From positions 1-64,000 of the IMG/VR virus record IMGVR_UViG_3300028115_000009: a DNA stretch of 64,000 nucleotides. One strand, 5' to 3'. This document shows positions 28,049 through 48,272 of the stretch, piece after piece. Source of the stretch: a virus. Under the pieces are notes generated by a model. It was not told the origin of the DNA, searched no databases, and saw only the letters and a program-made list of their open reading frames with translations. The translations under genes were made by a program, and so were the position numbers. Every line of letters begins with the position of its first letter. The first letter of the stretch is position 1.

Positions 28049-28698
28049 GATTTAACGAATTTAAATCAATAATTAAAGAAGCTGCTGATACACAGTCTAT
28101 AACTGTACATTTTGCAGATGGCACAACTAAAGCCATCACTGATATTCCAATAACAGTATTTAATTCTTCAAATTTTGAACAGTCTCTTAGAGATAAGATG
28201 AATAGGAATTTTCCTAATTCAGAATATAGTAGATTTACTGTCAAAGTAGATTTCGAACCAACTGCTGATGAAAAACAGCAAATGGAAAATGTTAATAATT
28301 TATATGATCTCATAAGAAGAGAGATTGCAAAACTATTTACTGCTGATGGTGCAAATACACCTTTTCCGGATAATATTTCTTTTTCTTACAGGGTAGGCGA
28401 TTCTAATAATTCAATACCCGACGTTAAAGAAGCATTTGATATTACAACATACAATAATACTAGAGATCCTAAGTCTGACAAATATGGAGCAATTCACGAA
28501 GAAGGTTGGCCAGTATCAGTCGGCGATTTTGATGATCTAAAACAAAAGATAATTGATAAACTTGAAGCAGGAGATGTGATTGCATTAGGTTCGGCTCCAA
28601 ACGAAGCACAACAGGATGGGTCATACAGGATTACTATTGCTCCTAATTCATTCCAATATAAACGAGAATTAGATATGTATAACGGAGGCAGTAAATGA
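28045..28698 (+). CDS. Hypothetical protein, putative internal head protein
   Basis: MRFNEFKSIIKEA start at 28045 (ATGA overlap); N-terminal domain paralogous to the next ORF. Confidence 0.6.
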   Translation: MRFNEFKSIIKEAADTQSITVHFADGTTKAITDIPITVFNSSNFEQSLRDKMNRNFPNSEYSRFTVKVDFEPTADEKQQMENVNNLYDLIRREIAKLFTADGANTPFPDNISFSYRVGDSNNSIPDVKEAFDITTYNNTRDPKSDKYGAIHEEGWPVSVGDFDDLKQKIIDKLEAGDVIALGSAPNEAQQDGSYRITIAPNSFQYKRELDMYNGGSK

Positions 28699-31091: not shown

Positions 31092-31532
31092 ATGAAGACT
31101 GATAAGATTATTTGCAGTGGTGCAATCGTATATGCCCTTAATACTAAACGTTTTTTATTCTTACATAGGGTAAAAGGACGCTCTGGTAATTTGTGGGGGC
31201 TTGTCGGTGGCACTAATGAAGGATGCGAATCACCATGGGAAGGTCTTAAACGTGAGATCTTTGAAGAGATTGGTGAAATCTCTATTATAAAAACAATGCC
31301 GTTAGAAACGTTTATTAGTAATGATAGCCGATTCCATTTTCATACATACCTAAGTGTAGTCGATCAAGAGTTTATGCCTTTGCTCAACGAAGAGCATGAC
31401 GGGTATGCATGGGTTGAATTCGGTAAATGGCCAAAACCTTTACACCACGGACTAAAAAACACACTTCAAAATAAAGTTAATTTAAGCAAATTAGAAACAG
31501 TGTTTAAAGTAATTGATTTACTTGACAAATAA
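31092..31532 (+). CDS. NUDIX hydrolase
   Basis: Nudix box GGTNEGCESPWEGLKREIFEEIG and LNEEHDGYAW; start at 31092. Confidence 0.88.
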   Translation: MKTDKIICSGAIVYALNTKRFLFLHRVKGRSGNLWGLVGGTNEGCESPWEGLKREIFEEIGEISIIKTMPLETFISNDSRFHFHTYLSVVDQEFMPLLNEEHDGYAWVEFGKWPKPLHHGLKNTLQNKVNLSKLETVFKVIDLLDK

Positions 31533-31550
31533 CTTAAGAGATAGTATAAT
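31522..31550 (+). promoter_or_regulatory. Perfect-consensus sigma70 promoter for the heptose operon (probably leaderless)
   Basis: TTGACA (31522-31527), 17-nt spacer, TATAAT (31545-31550); ATG at 31557 with no SD. Confidence 0.85.
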
Positions 31551-31556
31551 TTAAAC

Positions 31557-32699
31557 ATGAAAGTTTTAGTTCTTGGTGATATAATCATCGACAAATACAT
31601 CTACGGAACCAGCACAAGATTAAGTCCAGAGGCTCCTGTCCCTGTAGTTAAGTATCTGCGTGAAGTTGAAACAATAGGCGGCGCAGGTCTAGTATATGAA
31701 AATCTTAAAAGTTTAGGTGTTGATGTTGAACTGTTTAAAACAGATAATGCTAGCAGTATCAAAACTAGAGTAATTTGCGACGGTCATTATATCACACGCA
31801 TTGATGATGACAAACACGCCAACGGCAATGTAGTGCTAGACACTATACGAGCAACTGATTTCTCGCAGTACAACTATGTTATTCTCAGTGACTATAACAA
31901 AGGTGTGTTAGATCGTTCTTTAGAAATTATAGAACATCTTAATAGTTTTGGCTGTAAAGTTATTGTAGATCCTAAACGTCATTCTAGTTATTATAAAGGC
32001 GCATGGTTAGTTAAACCTAATAACAAAGAATATCGTGAGTTAGGATTTGATACTTGGCTAGGTAACATTATTACAACTCACGCACATGACGCAGTACATG
32101 CTAAGATTGACAATGCTGATTATACCGCAATTGTAGATCAAGTCGAAGTATCAGATGTTACTGGAGCAGGTGATTGTTTCTTAGCAGCATTTGTATACGG
32201 TATTGACATTGGAAAAAATTACGCAACTTGTTTGCAAATGGCTGTTGACGCAGCAACTGAAAGTGTAAAACATGCAGGTACATATGTCTTAAGTAAAAAA
32301 GATTTTGAACAATCTATAGTGTTTACTAATGGCGTATTTGATATACTACACAAAGGACATTTTGAACTATTAAAACAAGCTCGCAGTTTAGGTACTAAAC
32401 TTGTAGTAGGTATTAACAGTGACGCAAGTGTTAAAAGGCTTAAAGGCGACAGTCGACCGATTAATGATGAACAAACTAGAATAGAGCAACTTGAAGCATT
32501 GCCTTGGGTAGATGAAGTGTTTGTGTTTAACGACGACACTCCGTATAACTTAATTAAAAGATTAAACCCTGCTCTTATTGTTAAGGGCGGAGATTATACT
32601 GTAGAAACTGTAGTAGGGCATGACTTAGCACCTGTGCATATTGTGCCTACAGTAGAAGGTTACAGTACAACAAGAATTATAGAGGCAAGCAATGCATAA
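31557..32699 (+). CDS. hldE: Bifunctional heptose-7-phosphate kinase / heptose-1-phosphate adenylyltransferase (HldE/RfaE)
   Basis: GDIIIDKY..RLSPEAPVPV, SDYNKG, DVTGAGD; then FTNGVFDILHKGH, NSDASVKRLKGDSRPIN, KGGDY and GYSTT. Confidence 0.92.
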   Translation: MKVLVLGDIIIDKYIYGTSTRLSPEAPVPVVKYLREVETIGGAGLVYENLKSLGVDVELFKTDNASSIKTRVICDGHYITRIDDDKHANGNVVLDTIRATDFSQYNYVILSDYNKGVLDRSLEIIEHLNSFGCKVIVDPKRHSSYYKGAWLVKPNNKEYRELGFDTWLGNIITTHAHDAVHAKIDNADYTAIVDQVEVSDVTGAGDCFLAAFVYGIDIGKNYATCLQMAVDAATESVKHAGTYVLSKKDFEQSIVFTNGVFDILHKGHFELLKQARSLGTKLVVGINSDASVKRLKGDSRPINDEQTRIEQLEALPWVDEVFVFNDDTPYNLIKRLNPALIVKGGDYTVETVVGHDLAPVHIVPTVEGYSTTRIIEASNA

Positions 32700-34128
32700 C
32701 ACAGTAAACAATATAACAATAGTAGGTGGCGGAACAAGTGGATGGCTAACTGCTGCTTATCTTTTAAAGAATACAGCCTGTAATATAACTGTTGTTGACA
32801 AAGAAGTTGGAACGCCTGTTGGAGTTGGAGAAGGCACGTTATTAGGTTTTAAACATTTCTTAGCAGAATGCGGATTTAAACAAGAAGAATGGTTTGATGC
32901 TATCGATGCAACATACAAAGCAGGCATTTTGTTCCCTCAATTTAATGGCGATAAAAACTTAGTATGGCATCCGTTTACATTAAATATGGATTATAGCAAA
33001 TACGATGCCAATGTCTACGAAGCGTTAACATATATTGAACAAGAAAAAATTAACGAATTAATGATGTTTTTTAATATAAGTTTAGAAAACAAAGTAGACA
33101 TTAATAATTTGAATTCTGCATATGCAATGCACATCGATTGCAGTAAGTTAGTTATTTGGTTACAAGAAAAAATATTATCACGTATTACTTTAATTAAATC
33201 TGAAGTAGTTGCTATTAATCGTACAGACAATATCATTAATCATCTTACTCTTAAAAACGGTGATACAATTAATTCTGACTTGTTTGTAGATTGTACAGGA
33301 TTTAATCAAGTACTACAACATAGTCCACAACGAACCGATCTTACTAATAGACTGTTTTGTGACACTGCTGTAGCCGGTCATGTTCCTTACATAGATGCAG
33401 AAGTCGAATGTATGCCTTATGTAGAATGTCCAGCAGTCGACCATGGATGGATTTGGAAAATTCCTGTCCGATCGCGAACAGGAACTGGTTTAGTGTTCAA
33501 TAGAAGTATAACAAGCATTGACGAGGCGAAACAATATCTATGCAAGCATTGGAATGATAGAATCACTCCAGATGATTTAAAAGTAATAGACTGGACCCCG
33601 TATTATAACAAAAATATGTGGGACGGTAATGTTGTTGCTATAGGCCTAAGTGGCGGATTTATTGAACCGTTAGAATCTACTGGTATAGGATCTATTACTA
33701 ATGCTATTGTATATTTGACGCATAGTATTAATACAGGATATTATAATGAATATGATATCGAAATATTTAATAGTACAATGAATGCGCTATATGAAGACAC
33801 TATTGATTTTGTTAATATGCATTACATTTATACAGATAAAAATACACCTTTTTGGAATCATGTTAAAGAAAATATCATTCCGTCAGAAACATATTTGTAT
33901 TACAAAAATATAATAGAAGCCGGAACACCTATTAACTATAACGGAAAGGGTTATTTGTTTGGCGGCGCAAATTGGATTTGTTGGCTGCTGCAATTTGAAA
34001 AGAATATAGGAAAAAATAAAAACATCGATGATGATATTGCAAATGAAATATTATCAAATTGGAGCGAGACTATTTCCGACGTTGATAATAGTCAATATAT
34101 TATTTCTCACTTACAGGCAATTAAATGA
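32692..34128 (+). CDS. Flavin-dependent (tryptophan) halogenase-like protein
   Basis: GGGTSG, GVGEGT, DATYK (catalytic Lys position), FVDCTGF, GWIWKIP and FIEPLESTG. Confidence 0.85.
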   Translation: MHNTVNNITIVGGGTSGWLTAAYLLKNTACNITVVDKEVGTPVGVGEGTLLGFKHFLAECGFKQEEWFDAIDATYKAGILFPQFNGDKNLVWHPFTLNMDYSKYDANVYEALTYIEQEKINELMMFFNISLENKVDINNLNSAYAMHIDCSKLVIWLQEKILSRITLIKSEVVAINRTDNIINHLTLKNGDTINSDLFVDCTGFNQVLQHSPQRTDLTNRLFCDTAVAGHVPYIDAEVECMPYVECPAVDHGWIWKIPVRSRTGTGLVFNRSITSIDEAKQYLCKHWNDRITPDDLKVIDWTPYYNKNMWDGNVVAIGLSGGFIEPLESTGIGSITNAIVYLTHSINTGYYNEYDIEIFNSTMNALYEDTIDFVNMHYIYTDKNTPFWNHVKENIIPSETYLYYKNIIEAGTPINYNGKGYLFGGANWICWLLQFEKNIGKNKNIDDDIANEILSNWSETISDVDNSQYIISHLQAIK

Positions 34129-34934
34129 AAATATTAATAACAGGTCACGAAGGATTTATTGGTAAAAATTTAGCGCCATTTCTTGACAAAGATAATGAGT
34201 TATTCGGATATGAATGGAATCCAGCCGCGTTGCCTGATGTATCTCAATATGATTGGGTTATACATTTAGGAGCAATTAGTGCAACTACTGAACGCGACAT
34301 AGATAAAGTAATGTTGCAAAATTATGAATTTTCAAAGTGGTTGTTTAATGAGTGTAACACCAACGGAGTAAATCTACAATACGCTTCGAGCGCAAGTGTA
34401 TACGGCTCTAACACTGATTTTAGAGAAGACGCACCAAAGCAGCCCCAGAGCTATTATGCAACAAGCAAGTACTTGTTTGACCGTTGGGTTATGCAACAAA
34501 AGCACGACATTATAGTACAAGGATTTCGTTACTTTAATGTATACGGACCGTATGAAGATCACAAAGGAAATCAAGCAAGCCCTATAACCAAGTTCTTTAA
34601 ACAAGCAAAAGAAGAAGGCGTTATTACACTGTTTGAAAATAGTGACAAGTATCTAAGAGACTTTATATATGTAGGTGATTGTTGTAACATACATCGTTAC
34701 ATGCTCACAACATCTGAGAAAGGTATATTTAATATCGGTACCGGAGTTGCAACAAGTTTTCAAACTATTGCAGAATTAGTTGCAAAACGATTTAAAGCTA
34801 AGATTGAATATATTCCAATGCCTGATAATCTTAAAGGACAATATCAAGAATACACATGTGCAAACATAGAACGTTTAAGTAATATAGTAAACATTAACTT
34901 CACAACACCAAAGGATTTTATAAATGGAAAATAA
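34125..34934 (+). CDS. hldD: ADP-L-glycero-D-manno-heptose 6-epimerase (HldD/RfaD)
   Basis: ITGHEGFIG, HLGAISATTE, YASSASVYG, YATSK, RYFNVYGPYEDHKG and YQEYTCA. Confidence 0.88.
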   Translation: MKILITGHEGFIGKNLAPFLDKDNELFGYEWNPAALPDVSQYDWVIHLGAISATTERDIDKVMLQNYEFSKWLFNECNTNGVNLQYASSASVYGSNTDFREDAPKQPQSYYATSKYLFDRWVMQQKHDIIVQGFRYFNVYGPYEDHKGNQASPITKFFKQAKEEGVITLFENSDKYLRDFIYVGDCCNIHRYMLTTSEKGIFNIGTGVATSFQTIAELVAKRFKAKIEYIPMPDNLKGQYQEYTCANIERLSNIVNINFTTPKDFINGK

Positions 34935-35316
34935 ACAGCCAACACGGTTAAGCGGCGCAGTACAAAAAGGCTGGGGCTACGAATTAATTTGGGCTACTAA
35001 CGACAAGTACTGTGGAAAGATTATGTTTTTTAATAAAGAAGGCATGAAGACCAGCATGCATTTTCACAAAGAAAAAGACGAAACATGGTTTATAAATAGC
35101 GGAAAATTTAAAGTACGTTATATTGATACTGCTGATTCGATGCTATATGAAAAAGAATTAAATGAAGGCGATGTTTGGCATAACCCGCCATTAATGCCGC
35201 ACCAATTAGTAGCAATGCAAGATGAATCGAGTCTAACCGAAGTGAGTACTCCAGATAGCGTAGAAGATAATTTTCGTATCGGCCCAGGAGACAGCCAGAC
35301 TGCGAGTAGCAAATGA
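34924..35316 (+). CDS. Cupin sugar-isomerase-like protein
   Basis: KGWGYELIW, SMHFHKEKDETW, PHQL and EVSTPD. Confidence 0.75.
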   Translation: MENKQPTRLSGAVQKGWGYELIWATNDKYCGKIMFFNKEGMKTSMHFHKEKDETWFINSGKFKVRYIDTADSMLYEKELNEGDVWHNPPLMPHQLVAMQDESSLTEVSTPDSVEDNFRIGPGDSQTASSK

Positions 35317-35960
35317 GTAATTATAACATAGTATGGAGCAACGAAGTTAAGAAACAAGAGTATGTTCCTGTATATGACAATATACATAACATTGCTCCTA
35401 AGTGTGTTGTAGGGTTAGATCGAGACGGTGTAATTAATGTCGACAGAGGTACTTACACGTATCGTCCTGAAGATTTCAAACCTATAGACGGTAGCTTAGA
35501 AGCAATTGCTAAACTAAGACGAATGGGTCACAAAATTGCCATTATTACAAATCAAGGCGGAATTGGTAAAGGGCTATACACAGAGTCAGATGTTGACAAA
35601 GTTCATGAGTATATGTTTCAATTGTTAGGCGAAGCAGGTTGTCCAAGTATTGATGCATTATACTATAGCACTACAAGTTTGCGAGAAGACAATTTTGCAA
35701 AACCCAATACTGGAATGTTCAAACGATGCCAGGACGAGTTCAAATACATTAAATTCAAACACGGATACTTTGTAGGCGATAAAATATCCGATCTTAAAGC
35801 TGCATTTAAAATGAGCGCAGTACCAGTCCTTGTACGCACAGGACACGGTGAAGAAACTATCAAAGAACTAAACAAATTCAGTAATCAAAAGATAAAGAAA
35901 AAGACCATCATTTTTGACGATCTTTCTCAGTTTGTTGATTGGTTGGAAAAGAAAAATTAA
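35313..35960 (+). CDS. gmhB: D-glycero-D-manno-heptose 1,7-bisphosphate phosphatase (GmhB, HAD family)
   Basis: LDRDGVIN, ITNQGGIG, KPNTGM, VGDKISDLKAA and LVRTGHG. Confidence 0.88.
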   Translation: MSNYNIVWSNEVKKQEYVPVYDNIHNIAPKCVVGLDRDGVINVDRGTYTYRPEDFKPIDGSLEAIAKLRRMGHKIAIITNQGGIGKGLYTESDVDKVHEYMFQLLGEAGCPSIDALYYSTTSLREDNFAKPNTGMFKRCQDEFKYIKFKHGYFVGDKISDLKAAFKMSAVPVLVRTGHGEETIKELNKFSNQKIKKKTIIFDDLSQFVDWLEKKN

Positions 35961-36532
35961 AAAGTTATTGCAAAGTTTGCACTAATTGTAACTCTTGTAG
36001 CTTGGGTTTGATTATACGTTACATAATGATCCAAGCTACTCGGAAACAATACAACACTTCCTTCTGTCATTTCTGGCACATACTTGTTACCATATATTTC
36101 TGTTTGTAAATTAACCTTTTGAAAAAAGTCATTGCTTGATTTATAGAAAACAAAATCACCACTATTTTCTGGTTTTTCTAACATATACGCACAACTAATA
36201 ACATTTGATCCATTAGAGTGGGCATGCACTTCTTGATGTTGTCCATAGTTGTATCTATTCATCCAAGCCTGGCATCCAATGGAATATTGTCCTATTCCGC
36301 CAATGTCGTTTACATATTTTTCAACTAACGGTAACACACTATTAAAAAACTTATCCCACGGCATTCCTGCAATCGGTTCGTTGCCAAATGTAGAATCTGC
36401 ATTGCAACTCCATCCTACAGGAGTTGCAAAATTAGCATCGTCTACCGAAAATGGAAGAAAGGCTTCTTTAAGCCTTTCGTGGTCTGGCATCTTGCATTCG
36501 TAAATTGGAGTTGAGAAGATCTCATTAATCAT
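35957..36532 (-). CDS. 2OG-Fe(II) oxygenase-like protein (TIGR02466-like)
   Basis: WMNRY..HQEVHAH, ISCAYML, EGSVVLFPSSLDHYV and RVTISANF. Confidence 0.8.
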   Translation of the reverse strand: MINEIFSTPIYECKMPDHERLKEAFLPFSVDDANFATPVGWSCNADSTFGNEPIAGMPWDKFFNSVLPLVEKYVNDIGGIGQYSIGCQAWMNRYNYGQHQEVHAHSNGSNVISCAYMLEKPENSGDFVFYKSSNDFFQKVNLQTEIYGNKYVPEMTEGSVVLFPSSLDHYVTYNQTQATRVTISANFAITF

Positions 36533-38345
36533 TTTTAATAGTTACCAGTTTGTTATACTCAGGTAGATACAAATATTCAATATCGCTACTTGCTAATGTT
36601 CTAAATGCATCATCTAATGTCTCAACTAATGGCTCGCCTCCTAAGTTAAAACTTGTATTAAATACAATCGGTACTCCTGTTTGCTTATAAAGTTCTTTAA
36701 TCAAATCGTAGTAATGCGGATTTTGTTCACGCTTGACTGTTTGGATACGACATGTACCGTCTACGTGAATAATGCTTGGAATTTTTTCTGCAATACCTTC
36801 TTGACAATTCATAGCATACATCATATGCGGAGATTCTTCTAGGCCGCGCATATCAAACCATTCATGTGCATGCTCATGCAAAATAGATCCTGCAAACGGA
36901 CGGAAGTACTCTCTACGTTTAACTTTATTAACAAAGTCTTTACCATTAGGATCAGTTGGGTCATACATGATACTTCTATTTCCTAATGCACGAGGACCAT
37001 TTTCTGATTTACCTTGGAACAAAGTAACAATATTTCTTTCACCGTTTGTTTTACCAGTCATAAGATTAATGACTTCTGTGTTAGTAATATCAGATAATTC
37101 TGCATTATATTTTTCTGCTAACGTATTAATTTCTTCGTCAGTATAGTTGTATTGCGGGCCTAAATATAAGCTGTCTGCAAATGCTCGCTGAGTGTCATCG
37201 TTAGTTAACATATGATAGCCAAATAATGCTGCGCCAATGCACGTACCTGCATCGCTACTTATTGGTTCAACATAAAAGTTTATGCCTTCGCCTTCTAATT
37301 CTTTTAAGTACCAGTAGTTAGCAACACAATTTAAGCCATAACCTCCGCTTAATACAATGTTTTTAATTCCTGTATCTGCAACTGCTTTTCGAATTAAACG
37401 CAGTACTTCTGATTGACTTTGTGTTTGTACTGCGTATGCCATATCACGACGATTCTGCAAATACGTTAATTCGTCTTTGTCTTGAATGTCAGTAGGTGTA
37501 AGTAGATATTCGTAACGACCTTCGTTAATAACAGCGCCGTTTGGATATGTAGGAATAACTAAATTCCTATCAGTTGTACGCCACATGCCGCCATTGCCGT
37601 CTGAGTAAATAGCAGGAACATTGTCGTTTTTCTCTCCGTACGGGAACAGTCCCATAGTCTTACCAGCCTCAATCGGCGACCAACCGCAGTATTGCGTAAC
37701 CGCTTCATATGCCTTTGTAATGCCTGCTGTGTCGTCTATTATTAACTCGTGAGTTTCGCCAGTTTCGCCAAAATTATCACTTGGCATATCTTCAATATGT
37801 GCAGCAGGCCAAGGGCCTCTTCCTCCTTGATGTTTATACACTGTTTTAAAATTAGCAGGGTATCTACAAGTAAAGATAGATTCTAATTCCCAGGTCATTT
37901 CAGTAGTTTCACCCATTTGCATAGGAATAAATGTTCCTGCACCATCTACAATAAGTGCCACTGCATTATCAAAACCTGATCTATAAAATGCACATGCTGC
38001 ATGAAGTTTATGATGCATGTGTGCTAAATCAATTACTTGTGGATGATTATATGGATCTTCTGTTCGAGAAATTAATCCCAACTTACGAGCTAATCCTGTA
38101 TAAACATCGTCACCTGTAAAATCAACAGTTCCTGCTGTTTCTTTTAAAGGCTGTGTATGTGCGATAAACAAGTAATCTAATTTATCAGTGTAATCTAATA
38201 TTTTAAGCATTGATGCGTAAGGGCCGCCGTCGTACTTATGTCTACTTAATCGTTCTTCTTCGATTGCAAAAACAATTTCGCCATCTTTTAATAAGCAAAC
38301 GCCTGAATTATGGCCCCTTGCTATTGCTGCTATCCACTGTGCCAT
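36525..38345 (-). CDS. O-carbamoyltransferase (NodU/CmcH/TobZ family)
   Basis: EEERLSR, HHKLHA, DGAG, GKTMGL, GGYGLNCVAN, GPRALGNRS, RPFA, HVDGTCRIQTV and NTSFN. Confidence 0.92.
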   Translation of the reverse strand: MAQWIAAIARGHNSGVCLLKDGEIVFAIEEERLSRHKYDGGPYASMLKILDYTDKLDYLFIAHTQPLKETAGTVDFTGDDVYTGLARKLGLISRTEDPYNHPQVIDLAHMHHKLHAACAFYRSGFDNAVALIVDGAGTFIPMQMGETTEMTWELESIFTCRYPANFKTVYKHQGGRGPWPAAHIEDMPSDNFGETGETHELIIDDTAGITKAYEAVTQYCGWSPIEAGKTMGLFPYGEKNDNVPAIYSDGNGGMWRTTDRNLVIPTYPNGAVINEGRYEYLLTPTDIQDKDELTYLQNRRDMAYAVQTQSQSEVLRLIRKAVADTGIKNIVLSGGYGLNCVANYWYLKELEGEGINFYVEPISSDAGTCIGAALFGYHMLTNDDTQRAFADSLYLGPQYNYTDEEINTLAEKYNAELSDITNTEVINLMTGKTNGERNIVTLFQGKSENGPRALGNRSIMYDPTDPNGKDFVNKVKRREYFRPFAGSILHEHAHEWFDMRGLEESPHMMYAMNCQEGIAEKIPSIIHVDGTCRIQTVKREQNPHYYDLIKELYKQTGVPIVFNTSFNLGGEPLVETLDDAFRTLASSDIEYLYLPEYNKLVTIKND

Positions 38346-38353
38346 ATTATCTC

Positions 38354-38884
38354 CTAATTATATTCAAAATCTATTACAAAAACTTTACGTTCGTTAATTG
38401 CAGGATAAGATCCGTGATGTATCCCGCCGTCCATTATTATTACATTGCCTGCTTTTGGTTCCCATTCTTTATATCCAATCGCATTCGACATAGAATATAA
38501 ATTTCCAGCATGTGGCCATTTTCTAATCCATTCATAATCTGATAAAAATAATATTGCACTAAATCTACGACTTTGTATATGTTGATGTGCCACAGAATAC
38601 GATCCTGGCGGATAATCAATCCACCAACTACTTGCATATGTTGCATCTTGTAATGTAGTACTTACACTATTTCTTAGAAAGGTAAGGTAATCTTTGGCAG
38701 GATCAACTTCAGTGGGGTATCCGTAATCCCATTTATAAAACATTGTTGATCCACCACGTTCTAAATGATGCTGACAAGACACATCTTTATTATATAAATT
38801 TAAAAATCTTTCATATTCTGGATAATATGTTTCAGTTATCCAATGAAAATTAGTTTGATCAAAAAAAGGTAAATCTATATTCAT
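38354..38884 (-). CDS. Putative 2OG-Fe(II) oxygenase
   Basis: WWIDYPPGSYSVAHQH, FSAILFL, HHGSYP and RKVFVIDF. Confidence 0.65.
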   Translation of the reverse strand: MNIDLPFFDQTNFHWITETYYPEYERFLNLYNKDVSCQHHLERGGSTMFYKWDYGYPTEVDPAKDYLTFLRNSVSTTLQDATYASSWWIDYPPGSYSVAHQHIQSRRFSAILFLSDYEWIRKWPHAGNLYSMSNAIGYKEWEPKAGNVIIMDGGIHHGSYPAINERKVFVIDFEYN

Positions 38885-39405
38885 ACTGCTAACCTATATG
38901 TAAAATCACACACAAACACTTTTCTCGGCTGTAATGTTGGATATGTTCCGTGCCACACAGTGCCATCAAATATATGAAGATTTCCAGCAACTGGACGATA
39001 CTCATTATAATCGCCATTATTTAAAGAATATAAAAATCCTTCATGCGGATTATAATCATCAACTTCTGATGTTGTTAGAAAAAGTACAGAAGTTAGTTGA
39101 GGTCCTGGATTGTGCGAATGAAATCCGTTATAAGAGTGTAGTGGATAATCTACCCACCACGCCTTAGAAAACTCTACATCTTGTAGGAAAGGATATACAG
39201 TTAATGACTGTTTTACAAAATTAATATAATTGTTATTAGTATCAATTTCGTAAGGGTATTTAAATTCGTCTTTATAATAAACTGTTGATCCGCCGCTGTC
39301 TCTATGACTATTTTCATTTAATGAAAAACAATCTAATATATGTCTGTAGTCATTGTAATGCAAATCTAATGCAAACGAACTGTATATTTCAGACAAATAA
39401 TTCAT
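38881..39405 (-). CDS. Putative 2OG-Fe(II) oxygenase, paralog of 38354..38884
   Basis: WWVDYPLHSYNGFHSH, TSVLFL, WHGTYP and RKVFVCDF; likely start MNYLSE at 39405. Confidence 0.65.
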   Translation of the reverse strand: MNYLSEIYSSFALDLHYNDYRHILDCFSLNENSHRDSGGSTVYYKDEFKYPYEIDTNNNYINFVKQSLTVYPFLQDVEFSKAWWVDYPLHSYNGFHSHNPGPQLTSVLFLTTSEVDDYNPHEGFLYSLNNGDYNEYRPVAGNLHIFDGTVWHGTYPTLQPRKVFVCDFTYRLAV

Positions 39406-39406
39406 A

Positions 39407-40402
39407 TTATACTGAGCAGCAACTATTGTCTTCTTCGTTAGGAGGAACATACTGTCCAGTAAATTTTGTAGATCTTCCTAAGCGTTTTCTTACACTATGC
39501 AATACTGCTTGTGTTTGTTCTTTATTCATATCCATTACAGCATCATTTGCTCTATTAACTTCATCTTCCATAGTAAGACGAATAGGATCATATACACGTT
39601 TTCCTTCACCAATGTCAATGATATCAAATGTATCCGAACCAGGGTAGCTAATATTGACAGGGAACGTAGATCCTGTAATCACCGTTGCTGTTTTTCCTAA
39701 GCTCTTTGCAATATGTTGACCGACACTGTCTACTCCTAAAAAGTGATCTGAACAATCTATAACACTCGACCATACACGTAGATCTGGAATCTGAGGCATT
39801 GCTACAGGAAACTTTCCAGTATCTTTTTCTTCAAATGCTACAGGAAATTCGCTCATTAAAATAATTGCATATTCTTTTTTAAGATCGTTTACTATATTAA
39901 TAACACTGTTTAAATGCATGCTTCGAGCAGTAGGATCAATTGTCATTTCTCCCATATTTTGAATTCCGCGACCAAACGGCTGTACTACTAATACTTTATC
40001 AAAACCAGTCTTTGCACGTACTTCTTGTACAATGTTAAAACCTGATACCATCTCTATTTGATTTAAAACAATTTTAGGGTCTTGTAATTCTCTTACACCT
40101 TTATTGTTAATAGCAATGTCAAATGCTTGAGCAAGATTACATTTTTGATTATAATACTCCCAAACACGATATGGTTCTGGGCTTACAATATCACGATGTT
40201 TTAAGTGTTCTTGAAACAGTCCTTTGTGCCAATTATCGTATGCACGATTATGCAGTGTAGGATGTCCTTTGTAAAAGTCCATGCCGCCTTCGCATACAAT
40301 AATAAAATCTTCATCAGTTTCTGCAAGTTTTTCAAATGCAGGAATTGAACTGATAACGCGGCCTGCACCTCCGTTTATAAAATACGCCTTTGGTCTTGAC
40401 AT
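39407..40402 (-). CDS. GT9-like (ADP-heptose heptosyltransferase-like) glycosyltransferase
   Basis: INGGAGRVISSIPA, VVQPFG and DHFLGVDSVGQHIAKSLGKTATVITGST, matching the GT9 DSGxxHxAxA box. Confidence 0.65.
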   Translation of the reverse strand: MSRPKAYFINGGAGRVISSIPAFEKLAETDEDFIIVCEGGMDFYKGHPTLHNRAYDNWHKGLFQEHLKHRDIVSPEPYRVWEYYNQKCNLAQAFDIAINNKGVRELQDPKIVLNQIEMVSGFNIVQEVRAKTGFDKVLVVQPFGRGIQNMGEMTIDPTARSMHLNSVINIVNDLKKEYAIILMSEFPVAFEEKDTGKFPVAMPQIPDLRVWSSVIDCSDHFLGVDSVGQHIAKSLGKTATVITGSTFPVNISYPGSDTFDIIDIGEGKRVYDPIRLTMEDEVNRANDAVMDMNKEQTQAVLHSVRKRLGRSTKFTGQYVPPNEEDNSCCSV

Positions 40403-40465
40403 TAGAACTCCTTAATTTTATTCATTATAACACTATTAGATGTATAGAGCAAGCATTTTCAAAAT

Positions 40466-40516
40466 TATTTATAAGGTATCGGGTTTACACTGTATAGATA
40501 TGGCTTCTTATAAATA
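40466..40516. promoter_or_regulatory. Divergent T4-type late promoters (TATAAATA on both strands)
   Basis: TATAAATA on the minus strand at 40473-40466 and on the plus strand at 40509-40516, the latter 5 nt before the ATG at 40522. Confidence 0.7.
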
Positions 40517-40521
40517 TCAGT

Positions 40522-42003
40522 ATGAATAAACATATAAACAGTATAACAGTACTCGGAGGCGGTACAGCTGGATTAGTATCTGCACTCATACTAAAGAAGT
40601 CATTTCCAGAAATTAATGTAACAGTTATACGATCATCTGATATCGGTATAATCGGTGTCGGTGAAGGATCAACAGAACACTGGTCTGAGTTTATGGAATT
40701 TATGAATATTAACGCACGTACTCTTATACAAGAAACAGATGCTACCTTTAAGTCAGGAATTATGTTTAAAAATTGGGGCGGCGAAGATTACTTACAAAGT
40801 ATCGGTGATGGATTTAATATTACTCACAATGGCTATCCTTATATGTACGGACATCAAATTAGTCAAAATAAAAGTCCAAAAGAGTTAGCAAGTCCGCTTG
40901 CTTGGCACAGTAGAGCAAATGTATGGTTCTTAGGACAAGAATCTACTCAAGTACAACAATATCATTTTAATACAAATAAACTTAATACATTCTTAGAAAA
41001 TTTAAGTAATGATTATAATATAAACATCATTGACGACGAAATTATTAATGTTAATTCAAACGAAAATGGAATTGTTAGTTTAGAAGGCAAACAACAATTA
41101 TACGAATCAGATTTTTTTATTGATTGTACTGGGTTTCGCCGAGTATTAATGAACGAGTTAGGGTGTGAATGGGAGTCATATTCTAAATACTTAAAAATGA
41201 AATCTGCAATAGTTTTTCCAATTGAATTTGAAAAAGATGAAGAAATACCTTTGTGGACACTTGCACAAGGAATGGATGCTGGGTGGATGTTTAGATTGCC
41301 AGTGTGGGGACGATACGGAAACGGTTATATATTTGATAGTGACTTTATCACAGCAGACGAAGCACATGCCGAAGTTAACAAATATTTTGGTCGAGAAATA
41401 GAAATTAGTAAACACATAAATTTTGATCCAGGAGCATTGAAAGATACATGGATTAAAAATTGTGTTGCAATCGGACTTAGTGCAAGTTTTGTAGAACCGT
41501 TAGAAGCAAGCTCTATCGGAACCTCAATACAACAAGCATTTTTGTTAACTGAACATCTTATAAATTACAACGATACCAGCATAAAAGATTATAATGCAGA
41601 TTGCAATGACATATTAACAAATATAAGAGATTTTGTTATTTTACATTATTTAGGAAATCGAACTGATACAGATTTTTGGAAAGCTGTATCAGAAACTGAA
41701 TTACCAGATTCACTGACTTCAAATCTTAGTAAATGGAAAAACACACTTCCTTCTGAAAAAGATTTTTCTAAAGTTACTGACAAAATATTGTTTAGTCATT
41801 TCCACTATATTTTAATAATGCACGGTTTAGGGTTATTCGACATTAATAATATTGCACATGAATATAAAATGCGAGTGCCGTATGACAAACAGTTAGAAGC
41901 AGAGCATACTATTACTGAAAACGCAAACGCACCGTATACTACTATACCGCATAAAACAATGTTAGAAGTATTACGGACTATGCGTACTTGGCCTAACTTT
42001 TAA
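40522..42003 (+). CDS. Second flavin-dependent halogenase-like protein
   Basis: GGGTAG, GVGEGSTE, DATFKSGI, FIDCTGF, GWMFRLP and FVEPLEAS. Confidence 0.85.
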   Translation: MNKHINSITVLGGGTAGLVSALILKKSFPEINVTVIRSSDIGIIGVGEGSTEHWSEFMEFMNINARTLIQETDATFKSGIMFKNWGGEDYLQSIGDGFNITHNGYPYMYGHQISQNKSPKELASPLAWHSRANVWFLGQESTQVQQYHFNTNKLNTFLENLSNDYNINIIDDEIINVNSNENGIVSLEGKQQLYESDFFIDCTGFRRVLMNELGCEWESYSKYLKMKSAIVFPIEFEKDEEIPLWTLAQGMDAGWMFRLPVWGRYGNGYIFDSDFITADEAHAEVNKYFGREIEISKHINFDPGALKDTWIKNCVAIGLSASFVEPLEASSIGTSIQQAFLLTEHLINYNDTSIKDYNADCNDILTNIRDFVILHYLGNRTDTDFWKAVSETELPDSLTSNLSKWKNTLPSEKDFSKVTDKILFSHFHYILIMHGLGLFDINNIAHEYKMRVPYDKQLEAEHTITENANAPYTTIPHKTMLEVLRTMRTWPNF

Positions 42004-42640
42004 AATACCAGTCTTCGTTTTCAGTATTAAAATCTGTAAAAAGGTTGTATCCGTTTTTAATCATTAAATCGTGAATCAATTGACGATTACTGGTAAATTC
42101 GTGTTCAATTGTAAAACATTTTACATTATATTTTTTAAAATCAAATGTTTTTAATATTTCGTATTCGCTGCCTTCGGTGTCAATACTAATATAGTTTATG
42201 TCTGTAGGGGCTTGATATAACGCTAATAAATCATTTAAAGTAATAGACAATACATTAATAGTCATAAAACTTTTATCAATATCTGTATCAATAGTGCCAA
42301 GATGCTTTTCTAATCCTGATCTAAAATTCCATCCGTAAAATTGGTTTTCATCTACACAAAACTTAAAAGGTAATATTTTACCAGTCTCGTTGTATACGCA
42401 CAATGTACTAACAAAGTTATCTCTACAGTTCATTAGGCTTTGCTGAAATGCAGGATTTGGATCTACACAAATACCTCTCCATTTGTAAAATTTTTCTAAG
42501 ATAAATGTATTACTTGCTGTAATACCATCTGATGCTCCGATATCTACAAAAAAACCATTTTCTGTATATGCACTACGATCAAGTGCAAAAAAATCTTGAC
42601 CATTTTCTGATATTTTTAAATTGCTGCCTTCTGGTCCCAT
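41993..42640 (-). CDS. FkbM-family methyltransferase
   Basis: FVDIGASDG..SNT, GICVDPN and ISIDTEGSEYEIL. Confidence 0.85.
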   Translation of the reverse strand: MGPEGSNLKISENGQDFFALDRSAYTENGFFVDIGASDGITASNTFILEKFYKWRGICVDPNPAFQQSLMNCRDNFVSTLCVYNETGKILPFKFCVDENQFYGWNFRSGLEKHLGTIDTDIDKSFMTINVLSITLNDLLALYQAPTDINYISIDTEGSEYEILKTFDFKKYNVKCFTIEHEFTSNRQLIHDLMIKNGYNLFTDFNTENEDWYFKS

Positions 42641-42641
42641 T

Positions 42642-43241
42642 TTATTCTCCTTGATGTTTATTGCTAAAATTCATTGCTATCATTATTCGTTCATTATCAG
42701 TTTTTTGTTGATCAACTTTATGCAAAAGATAACTTGGAAATATTAATAGCATTCCTGTTTCTGGTTGTACACTAACTTGATTAGAATTAAACTCAGTTTT
42801 AATAGATTTAACTCCCATGCCCCAACCTGTATCGATAATATTTTTATTTAAAAAACATATAGGTGCATCAGTATGTTCTGCTTGTAGATAATATACGGCA
42901 CTCCACAAACAATCAGGATGCGTATGTGCTTCGTGATATCCGTACTTTTCTATAATACTAAACCAAGAATTTAGATAGTTAATTGGTTCTAAAAATCCAG
43001 CAAAGTTATTGACAGAATTCACTTCAGTTAAAATAAAATCTTTTACATCTTTTAATAGAGGATCGTCTATTATATTGTTATCGTTATAAAAATCAGTATA
43101 ATTTCCTAATGGTGCATTTTCCATTAATGAAATATCTTTTTTGCTTTTTAATTTGTTAATTATAGCATCTCGAGTATTATTTTCGATAGTAAAAAAAGAC
43201 CTAAACAATAATGATGAAAATATTTGTGCTGGTTCTGCCAT
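42642..43241 (-). CDS. 2OG-Fe(II) oxygenase-like protein (TIGR02466-like)
   Basis: SWF..HEAHTHP, SAVYYL, GMLLIFPSYLLHKV and RIMIAMN. Confidence 0.8.
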   Translation of the reverse strand: MAEPAQIFSSLLFRSFFTIENNTRDAIINKLKSKKDISLMENAPLGNYTDFYNDNNIIDDPLLKDVKDFILTEVNSVNNFAGFLEPINYLNSWFSIIEKYGYHEAHTHPDCLWSAVYYLQAEHTDAPICFLNKNIIDTGWGMGVKSIKTEFNSNQVSVQPETGMLLIFPSYLLHKVDQQKTDNERIMIAMNFSNKHQGE

Positions 43242-43246
43242 GTAAA

Positions 43247-44152
43247 TTATCGTCCTCTTAATAAATTGTTAACACCGATTACATCATTTGCAGTTAGTAG
43301 ATTAAAAAAACATTGCATATCAGTTCCTGCTTCTTCTTTTAAATCTTCTACATATAATGCTATACTTTCATTATTGTTTATATACTTTTCATCTATATTA
43401 AATAATTCGTATATCCCGTTATTTTTTAAGTAATTATGATACTGTAATGATGTTAGATGCGGTTCAGTATACGTAGTGTCAGATGTTTTAAAATAATCTA
43501 ATGCAGACAAATCTTGTTTGTCTATGTCAAACTGCCAATTTAAATCAGGGCTGTTCCATTTTTCTGTTAAGATAGGAGGAAACCAATGTTCGTTGTTATC
43601 TTCCCAAATTCGTTCTTTATAAGGAGTTAATGTAGGATCCATATCCCATAGACTTATACTATTATCTGTATCAGAATTTTCGTCTAAATGCCCTACTTTT
43701 AATCGATAATCTTGTAAATCAGTTGATGCTGTCATAAACCAATAGCAACCGATACCTTTTAATAGTTCTTGTACTAAAATAACATTATTCAATGTATGTA
43801 TATAGTAGGCAGGTTCGTTCCAGAAGGTATTGATCCATTTTTTATCAAACACTTTTGAATTCCAGGAAGAAAATATGTTACCACGAGTTTTCCACATTGT
43901 ACAATCAGCTGACGGAATATCAGGCCGTGCATAATCGTGACGCACATAACTCGACCATTGTACAATAACAAGATCATCTTTAGTAAATTTATATAATGCA
44001 TGTGCTTCAGCTATTCTTTCAGCAATTGCACGATTGCCTATACCCGGATGTCCCCAATTATAATATTGATCCCATCCTATATTAATAAAGTCTGCCCAAG
44101 TAGGCCAATTGTACTTAGTGAAACTACATCCAAATGTGAATAATCGAGTCAT
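43247..44152 (-). CDS. Hypothetical protein, possible SGNH/GDSL-like fold
   Basis: FTFGCSFT..WPTWAD, GIGN, VIVQWS and a C-terminal EPH. Confidence 0.5.
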   Translation of the reverse strand: MTRLFTFGCSFTKYNWPTWADFINIGWDQYYNWGHPGIGNRAIAERIAEAHALYKFTKDDLVIVQWSSYVRHDYARPDIPSADCTMWKTRGNIFSSWNSKVFDKKWINTFWNEPAYYIHTLNNVILVQELLKGIGCYWFMTASTDLQDYRLKVGHLDENSDTDNSISLWDMDPTLTPYKERIWEDNNEHWFPPILTEKWNSPDLNWQFDIDKQDLSALDYFKTSDTTYTEPHLTSLQYHNYLKNNGIYELFNIDEKYINNNESIALYVEDLKEEAGTDMQCFFNLLTANDVIGVNNLLRGR

Positions 44153-44160
44153 ACACTGAC

Positions 44161-44859
44161 CTATATAAAAAACATTTGATTTAATCTATAAACATCGTCA
44201 TTATACATGTCATCAGTTATGTATGCTGCATGATAAATGTTTGCTTGATATATAACCATTCGATTATATTTCATTTCTGTCATGTGATGCATTTTCCAAT
44301 CACCCATATCACCATTTACATATATGTCGGTAGGTTTCCCGTTATCAGCTTTATATAAGCCAAATTCAGTTCCGCCTGTTTGCCCATCAAATGAATAAAA
44401 TCCTGTTCCACCTTTACATTCTTCCGGAGTATTTAAAAATACCATTGCTGCAAATGCTGTAGGATATGGGCAATCTATGTGCGGCGGGCGCGGCTCTAAA
44501 AATTTGGTATGCATAATATTAACAATAAATGTAGAATCACGAAACACATCGTTAATATGATTAGGAGGAAATTGAAAATGTTGTTCTGGATATACTGTTT
44601 GTAGTATATTGTCAAATATAGGTCCCATATGATCCATTAAGTAAAATGCATTTATCCTGGGACCAGGTAACCTTGTGCGAATTCTTTCATTTATAGACGG
44701 CGGAATTCTTAATGCTAAATCTCTAACTTGGTCTGGATTTTTATAAAAGTTATCTACAGTAACAACTTTAGTTTCATTTGGACCAAATGTTTCAACATTT
44801 ACTTTTAAATCTTCATTAACTGCAAACGTTTCTATTTCGTCTATAAAATATTTTTTCAT
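44161..44859 (-). CDS. 2OG-Fe(II) oxygenase-like protein (DUF6445-like)
   Basis: VDNFYKNPD, PHID, FLNTPEECKGGTGFY, KYNRMVIY..YHAA and RLNQMFF. Confidence 0.7.
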   Translation of the reverse strand: MKKYFIDEIETFAVNEDLKVNVETFGPNETKVVTVDNFYKNPDQVRDLALRIPPSINERIRTRLPGPRINAFYLMDHMGPIFDNILQTVYPEQHFQFPPNHINDVFRDSTFIVNIMHTKFLEPRPPHIDCPYPTAFAAMVFLNTPEECKGGTGFYSFDGQTGGTEFGLYKADNGKPTDIYVNGDMGDWKMHHMTEMKYNRMVIYQANIYHAAYITDDMYNDDVYRLNQMFFI

Positions 44860-44959: not shown

Positions 44960-45670
44960 TTATACTTCAGGATCATCCACAGGCATTGTAGGGAACATTT
45001 GTGCTGCAATATACGGAGGGAACTCTGCTAATGCAGTTGGCAAGTCTCTTAACAACTGTCTGTATGTTTTCCATCTATTTTTTAATTCTTCAGGCATATC
45101 GTCTGAAAACGCACCATCAGTATCTGCAAGTGCTTTGTTACGTACTTTTTTAATGTCGTCCCATGTCATATCTATTTTAATGTCTGTAGCCCAATCATGT
45201 ACTGGAACATGGAACTCTTTAGTATCAAAGTCGTATGTAATGTTAAATTCATCATATACGTCACGAGGTTCATATTCTGTTGGTTTTTCAATATTTAGAT
45301 ATCCTTCCGGGCTTGTGAAGTACGGAACCCAAGTACGGTTTGCTCTAAACTCAACTTGCGTCGAATCTCCCTGATCATTAGCTATTTCACATAGTAGACC
45401 GTTTTCTTCAAGTGAACAATCGATGCAAACTCTTTCAACATTAAGAGGAGTAGGCCTCTCGAGTTCTGCAGGATATACCAAACACCATCCGCTTTCTTTA
45501 CCTGTATCTTTGTCAATTTCAAATGTCAGGTAACGCGGGCCGCGATAAGTGAATGTATCAGTATAACCTTTTTCAAATGTGTTTTCTCTAAAATCGTCAG
45601 GGATTTTATAAGTGAAAGTTGTTTCACACATTTCAACTTCTGAGATTACTACTTCATTTTCTTCTGGCAT
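44960..45670 (-). CDS. Tail fibre assembly chaperone-like protein
   Basis: C-terminal WDDIKKVRNKALADTD...WKTYRQLLRDLP signature; last gene of the fibre block. Confidence 0.7.
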   Translation of the reverse strand: MPEENEVVISEVEMCETTFTYKIPDDFRENTFEKGYTDTFTYRGPRYLTFEIDKDTGKESGWCLVYPAELERPTPLNVERVCIDCSLEENGLLCEIANDQGDSTQVEFRANRTWVPYFTSPEGYLNIEKPTEYEPRDVYDEFNITYDFDTKEFHVPVHDWATDIKIDMTWDDIKKVRNKALADTDGAFSDDMPEELKNRWKTYRQLLRDLPTALAEFPPYIAAQMFPTMPVDDPEV

Positions 45671-45708: not shown

Positions 45709-46545
45709 TTAAGCATATGTAATTCTTACTATTCCTGAGCCGCCGCCCTGGCCGCCTGCACAACATTTTGCGTTATTACCACAATATGAGCTTAGGCCAC
45801 TCGTTCCACCTGTTCCTGGAGGTGCTGCGTAACAACCACAAGTACACCAAGATTCAGATGCGCCACTTGCTCCTGATAATCCAATAATCGGAGCTTGTCC
45901 TGTCCATTGCATAACCCTCCAACAGTGACACCCGCCGTGACCTGGTTTCATTCCGACAGTACCCATCATTCCAAAATCAGAGCCAAACATTCCGCAAATA
46001 TTACAGTTAGCACACCCCTGTGTATGATGTCTTGGTCCCCAAGCATCACCATTACACATCCATCCGCCACAACCACCAGTAACACAGAAGTTACTTAGAT
46101 TGTGTCCATTTACGTATGAACGACATCCCATACCTGCACTACAAGTATGCGATTTATTACAAGGCCAAGTTCCTCCAGCACACACGGTATATGTACATCC
46201 AGGGCTTGTTGATATCGTTCTAATGGCGTAGTTGCCTCCAGCGCCACCAATTGAGAACGAACAGCAGTTACAACAGGTGTGACCTGCTCCGCCGCCCCCA
46301 CCTGACCAAATTTCAAAAGTAACTCTACATACTTTTGATGGCACAGTAAATAAACAGCATGCGCCGCAATATTGACAACAACATCCTCCAGCGCTTGCAC
46401 ACTGGTGACATTGCATCATTCTACTATTATATATCCAAACAGTGTTATATCTAACACCTGCACCATTTGCTAATTGATTCGAATTAACAAAATTATCTGG
46501 TATTTGGTCTGTTTTTAGCTGTTTATAGCTGTCATACGTTGCCAT
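45709..46545 (-). CDS. Cys/Gly-rich putative fibre-tip/adhesin protein, paralog 1
   Basis: FTVP..V.FEIWSGGGGGAG...GGSGIVRITY glycine-rich domain frame; 32 Cys in 278 aa. Confidence 0.65.
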   Translation of the reverse strand: MATYDSYKQLKTDQIPDNFVNSNQLANGAGVRYNTVWIYNSRMMQCHQCASAGGCCCQYCGACCLFTVPSKVCRVTFEIWSGGGGGAGHTCCNCCSFSIGGAGGNYAIRTISTSPGCTYTVCAGGTWPCNKSHTCSAGMGCRSYVNGHNLSNFCVTGGCGGWMCNGDAWGPRHHTQGCANCNICGMFGSDFGMMGTVGMKPGHGGCHCWRVMQWTGQAPIIGLSGASGASESWCTCGCYAAPPGTGGTSGLSSYCGNNAKCCAGGQGGGSGIVRITYA

Positions 46546-48254: not shown

Positions 48255-48272
48255 ATTATATTGTATCCTTCA

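Follow-up and report, generated by a model that had tools for sequence, protein, structure and literature searches.

A divergent GT9-fold glycosyltransferase linked to carbamoyltransferase, heptose-supply and tail-fibre genes in T4-like phages

In a 64-kb stretch of viral DNA (positions 1 to 64,000 of IMG/VR record IMGVR_UViG_3300028115_000009, hereafter the window), which is the first part of an 87.5-kb viral contig, we find a divergent GT9-fold glycosyltransferase (39407-40402) encoded together with a carbamoyltransferase and a set of heptose-supply genes, next to the tail-fibre genes. The source phage is a T4-like cyanomyovirus, whose genes in the window include those for gp15, which stabilises the tail sheath, for a tail sheath protein, for fibre proteins and for a giant fibre-like protein of 3722 aa. 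We read the region as a single functional unit that many T4-like phages of marine and fresh waters carry: the glycosyltransferase, the carbamoyltransferase and the heptose-supply genes form its conserved core, and the halogenases, the FkbM methyltransferase and most oxygenases are lineage-variable accessories. Synteny, together with arguments against other acceptors, makes glycosylation of the phage's own fibres with a carbamoyl-heptose the best-supported mechanism, to which we give a probability of roughly 0.45. All the genes named in a preliminary description of this DNA, made from the sequence without database searches, are present where it placed them. Proteins of the window were compared with the profile libraries Pfam, NCBIfam and PHROGs, and structural comparisons used AlphaFold (AF2) models, with Foldseek and VIA Z scores against solved structures.

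The glycosyltransferase (331 aa, minus strand; T4-GC 302, phrog_8954) gives no match in a Pfam search, and its earlier annotation was hypothetical only. It matches phrog_8954, a family of unknown function (E 3e-144), and, only weakly, TIGR02201 (E 0.004). We counted motifs in 58 diverse members of the family, 26 of which match PF01075 (top E 1.2e-8); a profile of the family searched against PDB sequences has WaaF and WaaC as top matches at marginal E-values, and hhalign aligns the protein to E. coli WaaC, WaaF and WaaU with 91% probability. The preliminary description had assigned the protein to GT-B/GT9, and its structure bears this out. The AlphaFold model (predicted local distance difference test, pLDDT, 94.5; predicted template-modelling score, pTM, 0.92) finds 3tov (a Veillonella GT9), TibC, WaaF and WaaC as its top Foldseek matches (E 6.5e-10 to 9e-8), and VIA Z scores run from 23.2 to 18.4 for GT9 members (3tov 23.2, WaaF 20.0, TibC 19.6, WaaC 18.6-18.9) against 12.1 or less for other GT-B families. 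Chains of GT9-like subunits of plant NDH are also among the top structural matches. In common with WaaC and WaaF (CAZy GT9, PF01075), the protein has a GT-B fold and a C-terminal D-S/T-x-x-x-H donor motif. Here the motif reads D-S-x-x-x-H, with D225 at the place of WaaC D261 and H230 at that of WaaC H266, and residues D225, S226, H230, G244 and T246 are invariant or nearly so in the family. The donor is likely to be ADP-heptose, as judged from co-occurrence of the gene with HldE-, GmhB- and HldD-like genes. The GT9-like fold is also that of TibC, with 265 residues aligned; the model aligns only to TibC residues 92-393, so the N-terminal extension of TibC appears to be absent.

On the other hand, the protein is not an orthodox GT9 enzyme. 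The GT9 catalytic Asp (WaaC Asp13) aligns to Arg15, a position occupied by R in 56 of the 58 members, K in one and C in one, within a conserved [N/D]-G-G-x-G-R loop of the phage family; in E. coli WaaC, WaaF and WaaU, G12 and D13 are invariant. The N-domain, basic in these three enzymes (net charge +5 to +9), is acidic in the window protein (-2; family median -1). A GT9 fold and donor site combined with this Asp-to-Arg change point to an altered acceptor or catalytic site, and E76, E117 and D156 are conserved as candidates for an alternative base. The family-wide replacement of the Asp could also mean that the protein is no longer a transferase, and that it acts as an accessory or assembly factor of fibres by binding either a nucleotide-heptose or a receptor that bears heptose. 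This explanation would be in keeping with plant NDH, where the fold also occurs in subunits of a protein complex, and with the position of the gene at a place typical of fibre chaperones. We nevertheless hold it to be highly improbable: the donor-binding residues are invariant, the candidate alternative bases are conserved, and a non-catalytic protein would hardly be expected to co-occur so tightly with a carbamoyltransferase and the supply of nucleotide-heptose.

This co-occurrence was counted in two sets of IMG/VR loci: the 80 closest loci carrying a homologue of the glycosyltransferase, with 10-kb flanks scanned (close loci), and a deeper branch in which the glycosyltransferase is ~36% identical and of which 54 loci had enough downstream sequence (distant loci). 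The pairing of glycosyltransferase and carbamoyltransferase is near-obligate, the latter lying immediately 3' of the former in 79/80 close and 44/54 distant loci. A GmhB-like/HAD gene is present in 56 of the close and 26 of the distant loci. The distant branch further has HldE in 19 loci, the cupin described below in 24 and HldD in 25, often in a compact block of glycosyltransferase, carbamoyltransferase, HAD, HldE, cupin and HldD genes with shuffled orientations. In the close loci the HldE- and HldD-like genes are mostly beyond the 10-kb flank; four of five long related contigs carry them 19-25 kb from the glycosyltransferase gene in the same genome. Among the best matches listed, every cyanophage isolate with the glycosyltransferase also has the kinase and nucleotidyltransferase, and several phages have heptose genes without this glycosyltransferase. 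The co-occurrence that the preliminary description had proposed to test in related phages is found in divergent lineages, and it argues for a functional link of heptose supply, glycosyltransferase and carbamoyltransferase.

The glycosyltransferase family is abundant (4201 clusters at 90% identity; 389 representatives at 50%). A scan of 185,579 species genomes yielded nine matches, all on phage or phage-like contigs binned into metagenome-assembled genomes (MAGs), so the family looks phage-restricted. All nine contigs (L178-L186) carry the glycosyltransferase-carbamoyltransferase pair, and fibre genes could be recognised on six of them; they are filed under Polynucleobacter, Gammaproteobacteria, Woesearchaeota, Verrucomicrobiales, Flavobacterium, Chitinophagales and 'Methanobacteriota', and are probably phage DNA binned into the wrong genomes. 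The C-terminal tail of the protein (window 39407-39440) is variable in the family and ends in NSCCSV in the window; a homologue in Aeromonas phage HJ05 (L003:6995-7918) ends in KSCCSK, and a Cys pair in this tail is seen in about 11 of the 58 members.

The heptose-supply genes form a plus-strand operon in the order HldE-like, halogenase, HldD-like, cupin and GmhB-like. The HldE-like protein (31557-32699, 380 aa; Pfam PfkB and CTP_transf_like) is a putative fused heptose-7-phosphate kinase and heptose-1-phosphate nucleotidyltransferase, whose top NCBIfam model is HldE (E 1e-79, 268 bits against a cut-off of 521). It is ~95 aa shorter, with a shortened kinase domain, and keeps the PfkB GAGD motif and the HxGH (HKGH) and STT motifs of the nucleotidyltransferase; its nearest solved structures are 5x9q (a putative cytidylyltransferase) and 4e84 (a heptose-7-phosphate kinase). 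The HldD-like ADP-heptose 6-epimerase, a short-chain dehydrogenase/reductase of 269 aa (34125-34934), matches TIGR02197 (E 3e-73, 246.6 bits against a cut-off of 274.6) and E. coli RfaD (41% identity over 242 aa, E 1e-53). Its N-terminus is shortened, with ~31 residues missing; the GxxGxxG and YxxxK motifs are present, and YASSA, YxxSK and FRYFNVYGP.E.HKG are conserved with RfaD. The GmhB-like protein (35313-35960) is a predicted HAD-IIIA heptose-1,7-bisphosphate phosphatase (NF006506, E 8e-43). As all three score below the curated NCBI cut-offs, we regard them as divergent members of their families.

The preliminary description had proposed a phage-encoded ADP-heptose supply. Its HldE-, HldD- and GmhB-like genes are indeed there, but the pathway is incomplete: a search for GmhA (SIS_2 domain) in the 87.5-kb contig and five related ones, which are up to 262 kb long, found none. 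The cupin of the operon (34924-35316, 130 aa; T4-GC 307, Cupin_2), which is always linked to heptose genes, is probably an isomerase or epimerase of a sugar or nucleotide-sugar; it may supply the isomerase step that the pathway lacks or act as an additional epimerase. Residues H46, H48, E53 and H93, which make up a 3-His/1-Glu metal site, are invariant. In VIA comparisons of the AF2 model (pLDDT 89.5), the C-terminal cupin of CapF, which is a nucleotide-sugar epimerase domain, comes first at Z 16.1, narrowly ahead of generic cupins at 14.6 or less, with phosphomannose isomerase at 14.2 and lyxose isomerase at 13.5; the profile and fold matches of the window cupin are generic. GenBank lists a 'phosphoheptose isomerase' (T4-GC 306, 111-114 aa) in cyanophages P-SSM2 (PSSM2_311, L002:18024-18368) and S-SSM7 (SSSM7_130, L001:22708-23043). 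These two proteins have no SIS or other Pfam match and start with a DxDxT HAD motif, so that T4-GC 306 is probably a misannotated small phosphatase; it has no homologue in the window's contig.

The carbamoyltransferase belongs to a minus-strand operon that reads glycosyltransferase, two weakly 2-oxoglutarate (2OG) oxygenase-like genes, carbamoyltransferase and a 2OG oxygenase. It is of the NodU/CmcH/TobZ O-carbamoyltransferase type (36525-38345, T4-GC 303), its two domains pass the Pfam thresholds (Carbam_trans_N E 8e-26 and Carbam_trans_C E 3e-58; 91.7 and 196.6 bits against cut-offs of 24 and 27), and its PDB matches are 7xb6, NovN, TobZ and GdmN (E 1e-55 to 1e-40). Pseudomonas aeruginosa provides a cellular counterpart of the pairing of heptose and carbamoyltransferase: its lipopolysaccharide (LPS) inner core contains 7-O-carbamoyl-L-glycero-D-manno-heptose, and a NodU/CmcH-family carbamoyltransferase is encoded among its heptosyltransferase genes. 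That system differs in being an LPS pathway that acts on lipid A-Kdo (Kdo, 3-deoxy-D-manno-oct-2-ulosonic acid).

All the nearest solved relatives of the carbamoyltransferase that bear names (NovN, TobZ and GdmN) are natural-product enzymes, which fits an explanation of the region as a small biosynthetic gene cluster for a soluble heptoside, carbamoylated and possibly halogenated, methylated or hydroxylated, that would serve in infection as, for example, a signal, an inhibitor or a cofactor. Two flavin halogenases, FkbM and several 2OG oxygenases give the region the composition of such a cluster, and antibiotics derived from ADP-heptose are known in septacidin and hygromycin B. We consider this explanation improbable, however, since the accessories that resemble a biosynthetic cluster are the lineage-variable ones (FkbM in 3/80 close loci, halogenases in 2/80 loci of the distant branch), the region has no enzyme to form a scaffold, and the conserved core consists only of glycosyltransferase, carbamoyltransferase and heptose supply.

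The position of the glycosyltransferase gene beside fibre genes, remarked on in the preliminary description, persists across lineages. Directly 5' of it and on the same strand (-1.0 kb), 72 of the 80 close loci have a gene for a tail-fibre assembly chaperone-like protein (in the window 44960-45670, minus strand; PF16778 E 4e-7, phrog_4912). Next in the window, at 45709-50270 on the minus strand, come three Gly/Cys-rich fibre-tip paralogues (phrog_4205) and a 665-aa fibre protein with 29% Ser+Thr, which are our candidate acceptors. The paralogues are in tandem (45709-48254), have 278-279 aa with ~19% Gly and 10-11% Cys, and match PF21722 (Gly_rich_2) in one case. Fibre-tip paralogues precede the glycosyltransferase in 63-64 of the 80 close loci and a fibre gene does so in 53. 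P-SSM2 and S-SSM7 have the same fibre-to-glycosyltransferase order, the P-SSM2 module having fibre genes on both flanks, and in the distant branch the 5' neighbours, where recognisable, encode fibre, spike or virion structural proteins. The order fibre, glycosyltransferase, carbamoyltransferase is also that of eight of the nine MAG-binned phage contigs; in the ninth (L186) the carbamoyltransferase is 5' of the glycosyltransferase and the fibre genes are 3'. The most telling case is Aeromonas phage HJ05, an unrelated 79-kb myovirus whose homologue has the same GGxGR loop, with the tail sheath gene on one side and a fibre-like gene on the other. The HldE-like protein finds no match in the HJ05 record, and within 7 kb of the homologue there is no carbamoyltransferase gene; Aeromonas makes its own ADP-heptose. 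A model of collagen-like hydroxylation and glycosylation was rejected, as the fibre proteins are without (G-x-y)n repeats. Among the neighbouring genes, the giant fibre-like protein (50621-61789) matches tail-fibre proteins of S-SSM7 and P-SSM2 in its N- and C-terminal parts, and in RNA-library contigs, joints from 46683 to 47539 and from 47259 to 48115 leave out exactly 855 nt between paralogues and reflect either recombinant variants or assembly chimeras.

In the mechanism that we propose, an enzyme of the host, or an isomerase that has escaped recognition, would convert sedoheptulose-7-phosphate into heptose-7-phosphate, from which the HldE-like, GmhB-like and HldD-like enzymes, with the CapF-like cupin, would make a nucleotide-activated (ADP-type) heptose. 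The GT9-fold enzyme would transfer this heptose, the NodU/TobZ-type enzyme would then O-carbamoylate it, and 2OG oxygenases, halogenases and the methyltransferase would act as lineage-variable accessories. The likeliest acceptors would be tail-fibre or fibre-tip proteins of the phage itself, whose genes lie directly 5'; the glycosyltransferase would act on them in the cytoplasm, late in infection. Within this reading, the picocyanobacterial host makes no heptose, so that all of the pathway for activating the sugar would have to come from the phage. The gene logic can be likened to that of the heptosyltransferase-adhesin pairs AAH-AIDA-I and TibC-TibA: in aah-aidA and tibC-tibA the transferase gene adjoins an adhesin-type gene, and the window glycosyltransferase likewise lies beside fibre genes, with the difference that its acceptor there is a candidate. 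We tentatively propose, with somewhat less than even odds, that a phage-only GT9 clade carrying the Asp-to-Arg change heptosylates tail-fibre adhesins, the sugar being capped by a dedicated carbamoyltransferase, which would be the first heptose-based glycosylation of a virion. Phage-encoded glycosyltransferases reportedly decorate virion proteins of mycobacteriophages (Freeman et al. 2023, as cited in PMC12801897), where enzyme families, sugars, hosts and target proteins are other than those of the window.

The same genes could instead remodel the host envelope, a carbamoyl-heptose on a host surface glycoconjugate masking the receptor and so blocking superinfection or the loss of progeny to debris. 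This is the strongest rival of fibre glycosylation, though we judge it unlikely. Its logic is that of Llp of phage T5, whose gene adjoins the gene for the receptor-binding protein, and the fibre adjacency seen here would fit co-evolution of a receptor-binding protein with its mask. Furthermore, to our knowledge all characterised GT9 enzymes that do not act on proteins act on LPS cores, and the nearest sequence matches of the window glycosyltransferase are WaaF and WaaC. Masking is also the published reading of the 'LPS genes' of cyanophages and pelagiphages (PMC3037559, PMC7029224, PMC12801897). However, the canonical acceptor seems to be lacking, as marine Synechococcus LPS contains neither heptose nor Kdo according to PMC4515613, which cites Snyder 2009, and the window protein has neither the basic N-domain nor the catalytic Asp that the LPS heptosyltransferases of E. 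coli possess. Host LPS of this kind and the charge of the N-domain together favour fibre glycosylation over masking of the host envelope. In addition, the Pfam-annotated genes of the cluster include no flippase, ligase or membrane protein, and the HJ05 homologue is located inside a tail structural module.

Several points weigh against fibre glycosylation. The case for the acceptor is indirect, and adjacency to fibre genes is also expected under receptor masking. T4-like phages pool accessory genes in a 'host recognition cluster' that contains the fibre genes (PMC7029224), and the proteins that we propose as acceptors do not form a single family conserved between lineages. The sequence of the glycosyltransferase is no closer to TibC than to WaaC/WaaF, and TibC is missing from the matches up to E 1 when PDB sequences are searched with the family profile. 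The Asp-to-Arg change may indicate that the chemistry or the acceptor is unusual. With no GmhA, the pathway is assigned to heptose by homology under curated cut-offs. Finally, published virion proteomes come from phages outside the set that matches the glycosyltransferase.

The acceptor might also be DNA, the heptose being placed on a modified base. A precedent exists in a phage cluster (HAD/kinase, cytidylyltransferase and GT-B) that makes mono- and di-heptosyl-5-hydroxymethylcytosine (bioRxiv 10.1101/2023.12.21.572611). As in the window, such clusters comprise a phage kinase, HAD phosphatase, nucleotidyltransferase and GT-B for heptose, and 2OG oxygenases are present in the window cluster as well. 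However, theirs are beta-GT-like enzymes located beside C5-methyltransferase/TET-like genes, whereas the window glycosyltransferase is GT9-like, with no beta-GT among the structural matches listed, and acidic (whole-protein net charge -8). No Tet/JBP (PF12851), C5-methyltransferase (PF00145) or thymidylate-synthase-like (PF00303) gene was found in the 87.5-kb contig, which is a fragment, and the PF12851 control was also blank everywhere. The oxygenases of the window are of the PF13759/PF13640 type and not TET/JBP, and the position of the HJ05 homologue in a tail module likewise speaks against modification of DNA, which we regard as most improbable.

The gene set is not new. It is the cyanomyovirus cluster T4-GC 302-308 of P-SSM2 (PSSM2_307-313) and S-SSM7 (SSSM7_120-133), published as 'LPS genes' of unknown function (PMC3037559), where T4-GCs 304, 305, 307 and 308 were seen to co-occur, again with function unknown. 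Orthologues comprise the glycosyltransferase (43-59% identical), the carbamoyltransferase (46-67%), the kinase, nucleotidyltransferase, cupin and epimerase, in the same place beside fibre genes. In the window, kinase and nucleotidyltransferase are fused in HldE order, whereas P-SSM2 and S-SSM7 have two genes in the reverse order; a GmhB-type HAD-IIIA phosphatase stands instead of the small T4-GC 306 protein; two halogenases and FkbM have been inserted; and the heptose genes lie on the other strand. The closest isolates by the glycosyltransferase are S-SSM7 and Sf-FS3 (~59% amino-acid identity). A megablast of the region against phage records gave a single short match in the carbamoyltransferase, that of the fibre block against the same records gave none, and a closely related genome is absent from the phage collection searched. 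What is new is the identification of T4-GC 302, on the strength of its predicted fold, as a divergent GT9 clade known only from phage contigs, its near-obligate pairing with the carbamoyltransferase, and its linkage to heptose genes and fibre genes across deep divergence.

The 'LPS genes' of cyanophages have been unexplained since their first description, and stuffer DNA was once proposed. With a core in which a carbamoyltransferase and a fibre-linked GT9-fold transferase stand beside heptose supply, the vague 'LPS' label becomes a concrete hypothesis, which is testable on the cultured phages P-SSM2, S-SSM7, S-CAM1, S-CAM3, P-SSM5 and Sf-FS3. If true, fibre glycosylation would be found widely among the abundant T4-like phages of ocean and fresh water, where it would probably tune adsorption, host range or resistance to host proteases and defences, and it would bear on host-range prediction from fibre sequence, on receptor studies and on the virion proteomics of marine phages. 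The Asp-to-Arg clade is in addition of mechanistic interest for glycosyltransferase enzymology.

Both promoter motifs named in the preliminary description are real. A sigma-70-type TTGACA-N17-TATAAT (31522-31550, plus strand), the sole 12/12 match in 29-46 kb, ends 6 nt 5' of the ATG of the hldE-like gene. The T4-type late-promoter motif TATAAATA (40466-40473, minus strand) lies 63 nt 5' of the glycosyltransferase start, and a second copy (40509-40516, plus strand) lies 5 nt 5' of the ATG of halogenase 2. The motif is not enriched across the window (6 matches against 9.2 expected), so only its position and its conservation 5' of the glycosyltransferase carry weight. It is found within 150 nt 5' of this gene in 27/76 related loci, many of which are related to one another, where about one would be expected by chance as estimated from shuffles. 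The proposal that the donor is made early and the transferase late is not supported: the sigma-70 motif is not conserved 5' of the orthologues in three related contigs, and in other lineages the heptose genes are directly behind the glycosyltransferase/carbamoyltransferase operon, so that this timing is no general feature. The short distances to the ATG, 5-6 nt after TATAAT for hldE (31545-31559) and likewise after TATAAATA for halogenase 2 (40509-40524), suggest leaderless or near-leaderless mRNAs.

DNA of the window was detected in metagenomes and metatranscriptomes of salt marsh. Four salt-marsh metatranscriptome runs gave RNA-library contigs that cover the whole of 29.5-49 kb, with a summed depth that is uneven and highest over the fibre-tip genes; such contigs may include DNA and carry no timing, strand or expression-level information, and their coverage hints only weakly at transcription of the region. 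In two runs, contigs stop at 40445/40446, just 3' of TATAAATA, which is a weak hint as well.

Turning to the accessory genes, flavin-dependent (Trp-)halogenase family protein 1 (32692-34128, plus strand; PF04820 E 1e-79) is located between hldE and hldD. In relatives the hldE- and hldD-like genes are directly adjacent, and halogenase 1 has the look of a recently inserted and possibly polymorphic gene. A single RNA-library contig (run X14) joins 32690 to 34123 and omits exactly this gene; with a shorter side of 28 nt, it is weak evidence. Halogenase family protein 2 is encoded at 40522-42003 (plus strand; PF04820 E 2e-89), and a halogenase is found in 67/80 close loci. The FkbM-family methyltransferase (41993-42640, minus strand; PF05050 E 2e-16) is a variable accessory.

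The preliminary description had counted three 2OG-Fe(II) oxygenases in the minus-strand operon. One is clear (35957-36532, minus strand; PF13759 E 4e-15), and its gene is found in 64/80 close loci. The two others, a tandem pair on the minus strand, have only weak PF13640 matches (38881-39450, E 0.009, with phrog_81 at E 6e-8; 38354-38884, E 0.003). In 53/80 close loci both members of the pair match one site 3' of the glycosyltransferase (offsets +921/+928), and the pair probably corresponds to a single gene in those relatives. Between the operon and the fibre block, a further 2OG-Fe(II) oxygenase (42642-43241, minus strand; PF13759 E 4e-22) is followed by a virus-only protein of 301 aa (43247-44152, minus strand), which has no match in Pfam, NCBIfam or PHROGs, whose atlas neighbours are all viral and all unnamed, and which is present in 53/80 close loci. 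The last gene before the fibre block, found in 69/80 close loci, encodes a DUF6445 protein (44161-44859, minus strand; PF20043 E 4e-18; phrog_1644, 'minor coat protein' in PHROGs). One DUF6445 protein of S-SSM7 has a weak PF13640 match, and the window protein is possibly related to 2OG oxygenases. Elsewhere in the window, among the neck and tail genes, a 302-aa protein (28695-29603) has a sub-threshold match to the Annexin repeat (E 4e-5, 24.2 bits against a cut-off of 25) and a short Gly-x-y-like acidic stretch at residues 185-205.

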